Assembly (NCBI RefSeq): GCF_013122565.1
Contig: NZ_CP053258.1
Direction: 5' to 3' (one strand)
Source: Escherichia coli
GTDB taxonomy: Bacteria; Pseudomonadota; Gammaproteobacteria; Enterobacterales; Enterobacteriaceae
DNA length: 64,000 bases
Made by a program: the position numbers and the translations under genes. Each line of letters starts with the position of its first letter. The stretch's first letter is position 1. Below the pieces are notes generated by a model. That model had not been told where the DNA came from. It made no database searches and saw only the letters and a program-made list of their open reading frames with translations. Shown here piece after piece: positions 2,682 to 8,800 of this stretch.

Positions 2682-3692
2682 ATGAAGGCTGCAGTTGTTA
2701 CGAAGGATCATCATGTTGACGTTACGGATAAAACACTGCGCTCACTGAAACATGGCGAAGCCCTGCTGAAAATGGAGTGTTGTGGTGTATGTCATACCGA
2801 TCTTCATGTTAAGAATGGCGATTTTGGTGACAAAACCGGCGTAATTCTGGGCCATGAAGGGATTGGTGTGGTGGCAGAAGTGGGTCCAGGTGTCACCTCA
2901 TTAAAACCAGGCGATCGTGCCAGCGTGGCGTGGTTTTACGAAGGATGCGGTCATTGCGAATACTGTAACAGTGGTAACGAAACGCTCTGCCGTTCAGTTA
3001 AAAATGCCGGATACAGCGTTGATGGCGGGATGGCGGAAGAGTGCATAGTGGTCGCCGATTACGCGGTAAAAGTGCCAGATGGCCTGGACTCGGCGGCGGC
3101 CAGCAGCATTACCTGTGCGGGGGTCACCACCTACAAAGCCGTTAAGCTGTCAAAAATTCGTCCAGGGCAGTGGATTGCTATCTACGGTCTTGGCGGTCTG
3201 GGTAACCTCGCCCTGCAATACGCGAAGAATGTCTTTAACGCCAAAGTGATCGCCATTGATGTCAATGATGAGCAGTTAAAACTGGCAACCGAAATGGGCG
3301 CTGATTTAGCGATTAACTCACGCACTGAAGACGCCGCCAAAATTGTGCAGGAGAAAACCGGTGGCGCTCACGCTGCGGTGGTAACAGCAGTAGCTAAAGC
3401 TGCGTTTAACTCGGCAGTTGATGCTGTCCGTGCAGGTGGGCGTGTTGTGGCAGTCGGTCTGCCGCCGGAGTCTATGAGCCTGGATATCCCACGCCTTGTG
3501 CTGGATGGCATTGAAGTGGTCGGTTCTCTGGTCGGCACGCGCCAGGATCTAACCGAAGCCTTCCAGTTTGCCGCCGAAGGCAAAGTGGTGCCGAAAGTCG
3601 CCCTGCGTCCGTTAGCGGACATCAACACCATCTTTACCGAGATGGAAGAAGGCAAAATCCGTGGCCGTATGGTGATTGATTTCCGCCGCTAA
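2682..3692 (+). CDS. adhP: Zn-dependent alcohol dehydrogenase, propanol-preferring (336 aa)
   Basis: Track ORF 2652..3692; start at MKAAVV with AAGGAGGAA SD; GHEGIGVV and CGHCEYC zinc-ADH motifs. Confidence 0.93.
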
Positions 3693-3837
3693 GAGGCCTT
3701 TGCTGCGACTGCCATGTTCGGGTCGCAGCATCGCACACTCTCCAACATGAAATGGCTAAATGGATTATTGTTGCGTAGGAAGGAACAATAATGATAGTGT
3801 TCCCAGAGAAGGAACGCTACTGAGAGTAAAGACACTA

Positions 3838-4122
3838 ATGAAAATGGCCAATCATCCCCGCCCGGGGGACATTATTCAGGAATCACTGGACGAACTTAAT
3901 GTCAGCCTGCGCGAGTTTGCCAGAGCAATGGAAATTGCTCCCTCAACGGCAAGCCGATTGCTGACAGGAAAAGCAGCTTTGACGCCAGAAATGGCAATTA
4001 AACTTTCCGTGGTGATCGGCAGTTCGCCGCAAATGTGGCTGAATCTGCAAAACGCCTGGAGTCTGGCAGAGGCTGAAAAAACGGTGGATGTGTCGCGATT
4101 ACGCCGTCTGGTTACGCAATAA
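3838..4122 (+). CDS. yddM: HigA-family XRE/HTH antitoxin-like regulator (94 aa)
   Basis: Track ORF 3760..4122; 94-aa form starts [56 protein letters not shown] (HTH). No toxin partner visible upstream. Confidence 0.75.
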
Positions 4123-4174
4123 AAAAATGGAACTTTATAAAGCGCCATTTAGAACTGATGACAAACGCAACATT

Positions 4175-4290
4175 GCCTGATGCGCTACGCTTATCAGGCC
4201 TACATGTTCACTGCAATCTATTGTATTTGAAGGGTTTGTAGGCCGGATAAGGCGTTCACGCCGCATCCGGCATGAACAAAGCCTACGTTG
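4175..4290. repeat. REP/BIME-type extragenic palindromic repeat cluster
   Basis: gcctgatgcgctacgcttatcaggcctac and ggccggataaggcgttcacgccgcatccggca, typical E. coli REP units, in the convergent yddM/fdnI gap. Confidence 0.6.
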
Positions 4291-4350
4291 TCTACAATAT
4301 GAAAATGACGCCTTTTACAGCGCCATTTTCAGCTTAAAGTTCAAAAGAGA

Positions 4351-5004
4351 TTATATCCCTTCTTCACTCTCTTTTTTCGCTTCTGCCTTCTCGATTTCAC
4401 GATACCAGCGCGGATGGTGTTTCTTCGCCCAGCGACGGCTCACCTTCCCTTCGATCATCCCTTTAATCGATCCTTTCACCCAGAATGCCATATACATATG
4501 GATCAGGATGGCGTGGATCAGGATGATACCCGCAGCCGCGTGGATCAGCAGGCTGTAGCGAACAACTTGCATCGGGAAGTACTGCGCAAAGTACGGACGC
4601 CAGATAATTACCCCGGTCACCAGCAGCACAAAAATCATACTCATGATTGACCAGAACATCATCTTTTGCCCGGCGTTGTACTTACCAACATCCGCCACTT
4701 TATGCTCATTGCCTTTCAATACTTCGACAATGTTCAACAGCCACGGAATATCTTTCTTATCCGGGATGTTGTGATGCACAAAACGCACAAACATAAACAT
4801 CAGCGCGACGAAAATCGCAATGCCGAAGAACGGGTGCAAAATGCGTCCCATCTGCGGCGTACCGAAGGTTTGCGTCAGCCATTGCAGCGTCGGGAAGAAG
4901 AACGAAATCCCGGACAGCGCCACCAGGAAGAAGCAAATCACCACGGTCCAGTGACAGGCGCGATCAATAAATTTGGTGCGCACAATCATTTTCGACTTAC
5001 TCAT
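4351..5004 (-). CDS. fdnI: Formate dehydrogenase-N gamma subunit, cytochrome b556 (217 aa)
   Basis: Track ORF 4351..5046; 217-aa form starts [19 protein letters not shown]; hydrophobic helices with His ligands; overlaps fdnH stop by 8 nt. Confidence 0.92.
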
Positions 5005-5893: not shown

Positions 5894-8800
5894 TTACGCC
5901 TTCTCGATGTTGACTAAGAACGCTTTATATTCCGGCGTTTGCGAGTTTGCATCACCGACATTCGGCGTCAGAGTGTTAGCGATATAACCTTTACGCGCGA
6001 CACCCTCAAAGCCCCAGTGGATCGGAATACCCACCGTTTCAACCTGCTGACCATTTACATTCAGCGGTTTCAGACGGCGCGTTACCACCGCCACCGCGCG
6101 GATAAAGCCACGCTTGCTTGAGACAGTGACACGATCGCCATTATTAATGCCTTTCGCCGCCGCCAGCGTTTCGCTGATTTCCACAAACTGTTCCGGCTGA
6201 GCAATTGCGTTGAGCAACGCGTGCTTGGTCCAGGTGTGGAAGTGCTCGGTCAGACGATAGGTCGTACCCACATACGGGAACTGCTCTTTTTTACCCATCC
6301 GCAGCGCGTCTTGTTCATACAGACGAACGACCGGGTTAGACACCACGTTCGGATGCAGCGGGTTAGTGCCCAGCGGCGTTTCAATCGGCTCGTAGTGTTC
6401 CGGGAACGGACCTTCCGCCATTTTGTTGATGGCAAACAGGCGTCCCATCCCTTCCGGCTGCATGATAAACGGCCCGGTTGGCGTACCCGGTGCGGCATTG
6501 CCGAAGTCCGGAATATCGTTACCCGTCCACTTGCTGCCGTTCCACTGGATCAGCATCCGTTTCGGATCCCACGGTTTACCGTTGATATCCGCCGAAGCAC
6601 GGTTGTAGAGTACGCGACGGTTGAGCGGCCACGCCCAGGCCCATCCCAGCGTATTCCCCAGACCGGACGGGTCGGAGTTATCGCGGTTAGCCATCTGGTT
6701 GCCCTGCTCTGTCCAGCTACCGGTGTAGATCCAGCAAGAAGATGCGGTTGTACCGTCATCACGCAGATGCGCAAAGCTACTCAGCAACTGACCTTTCTTC
6801 GCAATCAGCACGCCATTTGCGTCATAGAGATCTTCCAGCGCATAGCCGTTGTTCTCTTTTGCCACTTCGTCAGATTGCGGTTCGTGCGGCTGCTTGTAGT
6901 TCCAGCTCATCTTCATCAGCGGTTCTACGCCTTTACCACCTTCGGCCTGGTACAGCTCGCGCAGATGATGGTAGATACCCGCCAGAATTTCGCCGTCGTT
7001 ACGCGCTTCGCCCGGCGCGTCCTGACCTTTCCAGTGCCACTGCAACCAGCGACCGGAGTTAGCGATAGAACCATCTTCTTCGGCAAAGCAGGTCGAAGGC
7101 AGACGGAATACTTCAGTCTGAATAGACGCCGGATCGACATCGTTCGACTCGCCGTGGTTCTGCCAGAAGGTAGAGGTTTCAGTCACCAGCGGATCGATAA
7201 CCACCATGTACTTCAGCTTGCTCAGGCAGCTCACCACTTTGTTTTTGTCCGGGAAGGACGCAACCGGGTTAAAGCCCTGGCAGAAATAACCGGTGACTTT
7301 GCCTTCGTCCATCATGTTGAAATACTTGATGACGTCGTAGGTCTGGTCCCACTTCGGCAGCCAGTCATAGCCCCAGTTGTTCTCTTTCTGCGCGGCATCG
7401 CCATAGAAAGATTTCATCAGGCTAACGAAGAACTTCGGATAGTTGCTCCAGTAGTTCACCTGATCAGCCAGCGTCGCTTTCGGCGTGTTCGCTTCCAGAT
7501 ACGACTGCAAATCAACCTGTTTTTCTGACGGCAGCGTCAGATAACCTGGCAGGCTGGTAGAGAGCAGGCCTAAGTCAGTCAGGCCCTGAATGTTGGAGTG
7601 ACCACGCAATGCGTTCACGCCGCCACCGGCCATACCCATGTTACCGAGCAGCAACTGGATCATCGCCATAGTACGGATGTTCTGCGCACCCACGGTGTGC
7701 TGCGTCCAGCCCAGCGCGTACAGGAAGGTGGTTGTGCGATCCGGTGCGCTGGTGGAGGCCAGCACTTCACACACTTTCAGGAAGTCGGCTTTTGGCGTAC
7801 CGCAGATGTTTTCAACGACGTCCGGCGTGTAGCGGGAAACGTGCGCTTTCAGCAGGTTCCACACACAGCGCGGATGAGTCAGTGTTTCATCGCGTTTCGC
7901 ATAGCCGTTTTCATCGAACTGATAGTTCCAGGACGATTTATCGTATTGCCGTTTTTCAGCGTCGTAGCCGCTGAACAGACCGTCTTCGAAAGCAAAATCA
8001 TCACGCACCAGCAGGCTGGCGTTGGTGTAATGCTTAACATATTCGGCGTTGATTTTGTTGTTTTCGATCAGGTAGCGCAAAACGCCAGACAGGAACGTAA
8101 TGTCCGTACCGGAACGAATAGGTGCGTAAATATCCGCCACAGAAGCGGTACGCGTAAAACGGGGATCGACAACGATCAGGGTTGCATCGTTGTTGTTTTT
8201 CGCTTCCATCGCCCAGCGGAAACCGACGGGATGCGCTTCCGCAGCGTTACCGCCCATTACCATTACGACGTTAGCGTTTTTGATATCCACCCAGTGGTTG
8301 GTCATCGCACCGCGACCAAATGTTGGAGCAAGACTTGCTACCGTTGGTCCGTGTCAGACGCGCGCCTGGTTGTCTACCGCCAGCATCCCGAGGGAGCGGG
8401 CAAATTTCTGGGTCAGCATCCCGGTTTCGTTGCTGGCACCGGAGGCACACAGCATACCGGTAGAAAGCCAACGGTTTACCGTTACGCCCTGCTCGTTCTT
8501 TTCAATAAAGTTAGCGTCACGGTCAGCTTTCATCAGCTTCGCAATACGGGTGAATGCTTCTTCCCAGCTAATGCGCTGCCATTTGTCAGAACCTGGCGCA
8601 CGATATTCCGGGTAGCGCAGACGGTTTTCGCTGTTGACGTAATCCAGCAAACCGGCCCCTTTCGGACACAGCGCACCACGGCTTACCGGATGATCCGGGT
8701 CACCTTCAATGTGATAAATCGCTTCTCTGGCGTTTTTCGCGCCATCACCCAGGCTATACATCAATAGCCCGCAACCTACGGAACAGTATGTGCAGGTGTT

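Follow-up and report, generated by a model that had tools for sequence, protein, structure and literature searches.

The yddM gene within the 64,000-nucleotide stretch of DNA analysed here (hereafter the window) is most probably an orphan. We read it, with a probability of about 0.85, as the antitoxin half of an ancestral chromosomal type II operon of the HigB-HigA (Rts1/Proteus) type, whose toxin gene higB was lost here. According to this reading, an ancestral higBA operon would have adjoined fdnI before Escherichia and Citrobacter diverged. In the lineage of the window, as in K-12, O157:H7 and approximately 75% of sequenced E. coli, higB and part of its leader would have been lost, leaving yddM directly behind the old higBA promoter. 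YddM dimers would then bind GGAACA-N10-TGTTCC and GTTCC-N7-GGAAC over the -10- and -35-like hexamers and autorepress yddM, as HigA alone does at the hig promoter of Rts1. Lacking a cognate toxin in cis, YddM would persist as a small autoregulated XRE repressor, which may have extra targets or may still neutralise incoming HigB. For annotation, yddM should consequently be viewed as an orphan HigA after higB loss rather than as an uncharacterised regulator of unknown origin; beyond annotation this has little import.

The presence/absence polymorphism of the toxin was already published in 2020 (PMC7232551), so that this part of our finding is correct but not new. The structure of HigA (2ICT/2ICP depositions) and the mechanism of HigBA have been published as well.

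The yddM locus and the toxin it lacks

YddM scores 93.7 bits against the equivalog model antidote_HigA (TIGR02607.1; cut-off 47.7), covering model positions 1-80 of 81, and its residues 14-65 match the Cro/C1-type helix-turn-helix domain HTH_3 (PF01381, E 7.6e-10). The preliminary description of this locus, which had called yddM an XRE-HTH gene of the HigA family, was thus right in this respect, and RefSeq likewise annotates a 'HigA family addiction module antitoxin'. Across 94 aa the protein is 100% identical to 'antitoxin HigA' of E. coli CFT073 (PDB 2ICP/2ICT), which gives it the HigA fold. The protein of these two entries has been named 'YddM from E. coli CFT073' (PMC3968373), and its structure is reported to resemble that of P. 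aeruginosa HigA with an r.m.s.d. of 1.2 Å (PMC6987408).

The spacer between adhP and yddM measures 145 bp; the interval 3693-4122 treated in the preliminary description correctly covers this spacer and the gene. Downstream follow fdnI, fdnH and fdnG on the opposite strand, and the order maeA-adhP-yddM-fdnIHG is the E. coli arrangement, which the RefSeq annotation of K-12 shares. The features of the locus are collected in Table 1. The hairpin behind adhP is kept in toxin-less and toxin-bearing alleles. As it has no trailing T-run, it was not called as an intrinsic terminator in a consensus scan. The consensus promoter/terminator scan of 3600-4400 called 0 sites altogether. An Rfam scan of 3500-4500 gave no match in the spacer and only sub-threshold REP-derived matches downstream of yddM.

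Table 1. Positions of genes and sequence features around yddM in the window
Feature	Position	Strand	Remarks
adhP	2652/2682-3692	+	upstream neighbour of yddM
Hairpin TGCTGCGAC-N12-GTCGCAGCA	3701-3730	+	inverted repeat directly 3' of the adhP stop; left edge of the variable spacer
Toxin-less (K-12-type) spacer block	3731-3837	+	stands in place of the 5' spacer and higB of toxin-bearing strains
14-codon ORF	3747-3791	+	nested in 25-codon ORF 3714-3791; lies over promoter/operator
Perfect 9-bp inverted repeat ATTATTGTT / AACAATAAT, 11-nt loop	3764-3792		loop in the opposite orientation in another common allele of E. coli
Putative yddM (ancestrally higBA) promoter	3771-3798	+	-35-like TTGCGT 3771-3776, 16-nt spacer, -10-like GATAGT 3793-3798
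Putative YddM/HigA operator palindrome GGAACAATAATGATAGTGTTCC (GGAACA-N10-TGTTCC)	3782-3803		inverted repeat
Second, overlapping palindrome GTTCC-N7-GGAAC	3799-3815		inverted repeat; putative operator half-sites
Last higB codon and stop, CAC TAA (CAC TGA in other alleles)	3833-3838	+	overlaps the yddM ATG
yddM	3838-4122 (stop codon included)	+	94-aa HigA-family antitoxin and XRE-HTH repressor

That the spacer holds no toxin gene, as stated in the preliminary description, is borne out as well: the 14-codon ORF mentioned there is real, and no toxin-sized + strand ORF stands between adhP and yddM. When the window was searched by tblastn with the cognate 92-aa HigB, no match reached E<=1e-3; within 3651-3900 this search returned only trivial matches of 2-11 residues (E<=1000), the best with E 0.38 against the 250-nt target. 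The proposal to look for HigB in the region of the 14-codon ORF led to no relic, as this ORF is unrelated to HigB and not conserved. Decay of higB in situ to a pseudogene was rejected on the same grounds, since tblastn with the cognate toxin detects no residual similarity in the spacer. When the toxin-less spacer was compared with the toxin-bearing allele by Smith-Waterman alignment against shuffles, only CACTGATGAAA at the yddM start stood out as significant (score 22, shuffle mean 13.8, reached by 2 of 500 shuffles); the left part of the spacer and the part from operator to ATG score no better than shuffles. As far as sequence comparison goes, higB is cleanly absent without a pseudogene, and its last codon and stop are the only recognisable remnant.

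The picture is a different one at orthologous loci. Of 5426 complete E. coli genomes, 4081 contain the toxin-less spacer as in the window and 1331 (24.5%) contain toxin DNA, one copy each and chromosomal in 1330, the toxin-bearing alleles sharing 90-100% nucleotide identity. Megablast with 3400-4400 of the window against these genomes revealed in some strains an extra CDS between adhP and yddM, which is annotated as 'type II toxin-antitoxin system RelE/ParE family toxin'. Strain A10, for example, carries a toxin CDS of 92 codons (L001 1979-2257), the TGA of which overlaps the yddM ATG by 1 nt. Its product matches HigB-like_toxin (PF05015, E 1.4e-17) and aligns end to end with HigB of Proteus vulgaris Rts1 (4MCT_B). 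Thus the toxin missing from the window is a close homologue of Rts1 HigB (E 8e-32, equal length), and Rts1-type plasmid copies are 56-58% identical. His54, Asp90, Tyr91 and His92 (our own numbering), which we take to be important for the activity of Rts1 HigB, are conserved in the alignment. The antitoxin is shared by both states: WP_000781370.1 is annotated in the toxin-less strains K-12, O157:H7 TR01, E2863 and STEC313 and also in the toxin-bearing strains A10, A3, E20 and Z247.

Beyond E. coli, a scan with YddM over one genome per species delivered 41 loci, on which tblastn with the toxin was performed. A full-length toxin directly upstream of the antitoxin gene, with 2 nt between its end and the antitoxin start, was detected in four Escherichia records, including E. 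albertii and Escherichia sp. MOD1. The same holds for about a dozen Citrobacter species, in which the two genes adjoin fdnI too, and for Pluralibacter, Enterobacter, Cedecea, Buttiauxella, Erwinia and two Chimaeribacter species as well as in distant deltaproteobacterial and other metagenome-assembled genomes. The toxin is adjacent to and upstream of the antitoxin at L001, L005-L007, L009-L013 and L015-L020, and the 1-nt overlap of stop and start is the same in the Escherichia loci examined. Escherichia and Citrobacter account for 16 of the loci; higB directly upstream is full-length in 14 of these and degraded in the other 2. Given the full-length toxin in related species, the toxin-bearing state is most probably ancestral for Escherichia and Citrobacter and the toxin-less state derived.

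The preliminary description had left open whether yddM is a solo regulator or the remnant of a decayed toxin-antitoxin pair. An intact higB upstream of an identical yddM in 24.5% of E. coli, and in nearly every related species sampled, speaks for the remnant, and YddM is a solo HigA at present; decay in place, on the other hand, does not fit a toxin that is cleanly absent with only CAC TAA left. Comparing the adhP-yddM junction among relatives, as suggested there, did reveal the intact higB, both in 1331 of the 5426 E. coli genomes and in related genera. The expectation that an intact toxin in orthologous loci would refute the idea was mis-aimed, since such a toxin supports the remnant reading.

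Toxin loss or decay has also occurred elsewhere. In 16 of 40 rows of a spread sample the toxin comprises 278 bp instead of 279 bp, among them O25b:H4-ST131 strains such as EC958; a 1-nt deletion frameshifts higB in these ST131-type genomes, and RefSeq flags the form found in Z247 (L002 1979-2256) as a pseudogene. The toxin of strain A3 (L049 451-720) carries an in-frame 9-bp deletion. Independent decay next to an intact HigA homologue was found in Citrobacter sp. FP75 (truncated), C. portucalensis (frameshift) and two Xenorhabdus species, and in Chimaeribacter californicus tblastn detected no toxin match upstream of the intact HigA homologue (L008, L014, L028, L029 and L031 taken together). 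The locus is a clean natural case of antitoxin retention after toxin loss, with recurrent independent losses (the ST131-type frameshift; the decays in Citrobacter, Xenorhabdus and Chimaeribacter), and this recurrence makes it useful for asking why orphan antitoxins persist, be it as anti-addiction factors or as domesticated regulators.

A mosaic allele was observed in E. coli O157:H7 TR01 (L004 1120-1250). It joins a left spacer of the toxin-bearing type, a 29-bp hairpin of the K-12 type and the final 47 nt of higB (100% identity). Partial toxin matches of this kind are found in only 2 of the 5426 genomes.

Retention of yddM

Between yddM of the window or K-12 and that of E. albertii, 12-13 synonymous and 0 non-synonymous differences were counted. 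The comparison with the divergent Escherichia SCPM-O-B-8794 gave 18 synonymous and 1 non-synonymous codon differences for the window and 20 and 1 for K-12, and 2 of 285 nt differ between the window and toxin-bearing A10. Because the differences are almost all synonymous, they point to strong purifying selection on yddM. Within toxin-less strains the window and K-12 differ by 3 synonymous and 0 non-synonymous changes, a sample too small to speak for selection after the toxin was lost. As the identical protein is paired with an intact HigB in other strains and the operator palindromes described below are conserved, we infer that YddM can neutralise cognate HigB and autorepress its operon.

Which function keeps the gene in place is a further question. 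YddM might have become a domesticated transcription factor that acts on other targets besides its own promoter, for example stress-response genes, which we consider possible, though on the whole doubtful. As a candidate transcription factor, K-12 YddM was subjected to ChIP-exo, motif analysis and RNA-seq of a knockout, and its target genes are given in Supplementary Figure S9 of that study (PMC6237786), which speaks for DNA binding by YddM in vivo. Furthermore, yddM shares alleviating genetic interactions with cspABE and oxyR (PMC9283627), and HigA of P. aeruginosa, which represses mvfR, provides a precedent (PMC6987408). However, the operator palindromes occur only at yddM within the 64-kb window, and no yddM phenotype was found in the literature searched.

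Alternatively, YddM could be kept for an anti-addiction or immunity function against HigB acting in trans, delivered by HigBA plasmids or by recombinant DNA from toxin-bearing strains. This appears unlikely. Purifying selection acts on the whole protein, which is 100% identical in toxin-less strains, and HigB homologues are common on enterobacterial plasmids, with 539 plasmid records including Rts1-type IncT. However, in 536 of these 539 records the identity of plasmid HigB to the cognate toxin stays below 60%, the relationship between the antitoxins is distant (E 1e-18 for P. vulgaris HigA), and the operators of the P. vulgaris and E. coli systems differ (PMC12266136). No experiment on cross-neutralisation of plasmid HigB by YddM was found in the literature searched.

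Comparable situations have been described. Bustamante and Vidal (2020) reported the pair as TA20 (ParE-2/HigA-2) in AIEC NRG857c and UPEC CFT073 and noted an 'antitoxin only' state for K-12 and HS (PMC7232551). The window shares with the HigB(ParE-2)-HigA-2 module of CFT073/NRG857c a 100% identical antitoxin, the chromosomal locus between adhP and fdnI and, but for one base, the operator palindrome; unlike these strains it lacks the 279-bp higB and has a different, shorter 5' spacer. The K-12 gene ybaQ, whose partner ParE-1 is missing, resembles yddM in that the toxin was lost, the XRE antitoxin was kept and the state is polymorphic among phylogroups, and a reciprocal orphan higA (ygjM locus) in B2 strains follows a like pattern (PMC7232551). 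YbaQ is also a structural relative of YddM (2EBY, E 5.6e-9). Nevertheless, ybaQ and ygjM are different loci that encode paralogous proteins, and it is the published pattern by which they are likened to yddM.

Promoter, operator and spacer

A putative promoter, which ancestrally may have served higBA, precedes yddM (Table 1). Its hexamers are weak, too weak to be called by the consensus scan, yet sigma-70 holoenzyme genomic SELEX assigned a promoter peak to the yddM/adhP interval (PMC3946193). Escherichia has kept both TTGTTGCG and GATAGT, and so, for the most part, has Citrobacter. Two palindromes overlap the -35- and -10-like hexamers. GGAACA-N10-TGTTCC has one match in 64 kb, where 0.15 would be expected, and this 22-bp palindrome agrees in 21-22 of its 22 positions with toxin-bearing loci of Escherichia and Citrobacter. 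GTTCC-N7-GGAAC is unique in the window as well (0.04 expected), and GA(A/G)GGAAC is kept across Escherichia and Citrobacter. Thus different alleles and genera have kept TTGTTGCG, the 22-bp palindrome and GAAGGAAC, but not the sequence around them; the best reading of this core is that it represents the former higBA promoter/operator.

The Rts1 module (host inhibition of growth; PDB 4MCT/4MCX/6CHV) offers the closest parallel, as in the toxin-bearing pair of E. coli the toxin comes first and the antitoxin second, and Rts1 HigA is homologous to YddM (E 1e-18). The Rts1-type hig promoter TTGCAC-17-TATAGT and TTGCGT-16-GATAGT of the window share the same layout, each being overlapped by two palindromes, which in the window are putative operators. 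However, the operator half-sites differ, being GGAACA/TGTTCC in the window and GTATTACA/TGTAATAC in Rts1, and the window locus is chromosomal and toxin-less, whereas the Rts1 module is plasmid-borne. In Rts1, HigA alone binds O1 and O2 over the -35 and -10 elements and represses Phig (PMC12266136). In the same way, YddM may repress its own gene through the putative operator at 3782-3815.

Outside this core the spacer has a history of its own. Blastn-short between toxin-less and toxin-bearing spacers returns the 22-bp palindrome only. In alignments, the window and the toxin-bearing alleles have in common TTGTTGCG, GGAACAATA(A/G)TGATAGTGTTCC (3782-3803), GA(A/G)GGAAC (3809-3815) and CACT(A/G)ATG at the yddM start, and the rest of 3731-3837 is unalignable. 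This holds for the A10-type spacer (3731-3837 against L001 1794-1978), though the adhP end and yddM are ~99% identical. Even within the constrained operator core the window is ~21% different from the A10 type, by hand count about the distance between Citrobacter and A10. The toxin-bearing Escherichia alleles in turn, including E. albertii, are nearly identical over spacer and toxin with scattered substitutions only. Among A3 and E20 (which carry the most divergent toxin alleles of the sample), E. albertii and the clade strains, no toxin-bearing allele with a K-12-like promoter was found; all possess the A10-type spacer. Since the toxin-less spacer is unalignable outside the core despite near-identical flanks and uniform toxin-bearing alleles, it looks like a replaced block and not like a fresh deletion. 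Horizontal replacement of intergenic regions is a published phenomenon in E. coli, which the apparent replacement of this spacer resembles.

Origin of the toxin-less spacer by one deletion from the toxin-bearing allele was rejected, as the two are unalignable outside the operator core. No toxin-bearing allele of present-day Escherichia yields the spacer by a simple deletion, which counts against the loss of higB as read here. Neither a donor nor a second copy of the spacer was found. Except where the inversion splits the allele, each E. coli genome has it at a single place, and plasmid copies come only from E. coli-derived records, some of which are mislabelled chromosomes. A contig of 214 bp labelled Clostridium sp. 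CMCC3677 (NZ_JAMQHS010000132.1) is 99% identical to the E. coli toxin-less spacer and yddM start and most likely reflects contamination of that assembly with E. coli DNA.

Another common E. coli allele differs in the loop of the 9-bp inverted repeat, which reads GCGTAGGAAGG in the window and K-12 and is the exact reverse complement, CCTTCCTACGC, in E2863 (L046, about 735-763). This allele was sampled from E2863, O111:H11 and O22:H8 strains; about 1061 genomes fall into the 80-90% identity band that holds it, the sampled rows all at 85.8%. Because toxin-bearing and Citrobacter alleles share the K-12 orientation of the loop, the inverted form is, by this comparison, the derived one. The inversion alters the -35-like hexamer and turns the left operator arm from GGAACA into GCAACA. 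As clues to promoter turnover, the apparent replacement of the spacer and the inverted loop within the putative operator are of modest value. One might go further and regard the spacer as a swapped-in regulatory block, instead of a product of decay, that shares only the YddM operator core, in which the loop flip, by changing the -35-like hexamer and one operator arm, provides two heritable expression states; the orphan antitoxin would then have been re-wired to serve, under regulation of its own, as a repressor or immunity factor. We deem this scenario improbable.

The spacer also bears on the converse order of events, namely that yddM has been a solo XRE regulator from the beginning and became part of a pair only when the toxin gene was inserted in some strains. 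In favour of it, the toxin is absent from most E. coli genomes (4081 of 5426) and the toxin-less spacer cannot be derived from a toxin-bearing allele by simple deletion. However, higB is full-length or degraded at the Escherichia and Citrobacter loci counted above (14 and 2 of 16), and most distant relatives carry it too. The 1-nt overlap is the same in the Escherichia loci examined, the operator is the same in Escherichia and Citrobacter, and toxin alleles at 90-100% nucleotide identity are typical of long vertical residence. Moreover, the last codon and stop of the toxin still precede the ATG in the toxin-less allele. A later insertion is thus very improbable compared with loss of higB from an ancestral higBA operon.

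That the 14/25-codon ORF (3714/3747-3791) encodes a functional small protein acting with YddM, such as a miniature toxin or a leader peptide, is hardly credible: it is present and identical in K-12, but in the E2863-type allele (about 1060 genomes) its ATG is ATT and the loop inversion has rewritten its 3' half, its sequence is missing from all toxin-bearing alleles and Citrobacter, tblastn with the cognate toxin shows no HigB similarity, and the underlying operator palindromes explain the local conservation better. It is evidently a chance ORF, neither a toxin relic nor conserved.

The region downstream of yddM

The spacer between yddM and fdnI (4123-4350) contains REP-type palindromes at 4190-4204/4237-4251 and 4242-4271, flanked by two related palindromic units of 27 nt (4124-4150 and 4303-4329), and gives sub-threshold Rfam matches to naRNA4 and ES036. 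Within E. coli its length varies by about +/-178 bp, and IS200 insertions are present there in some strains. Further downstream, the fdnG reading frame (5894-8305, - strand) is listed at only 803 aa; the full gene presumably extends upstream through an in-frame TGA, which we take to be the known selenocysteine codon of formate dehydrogenase-N.
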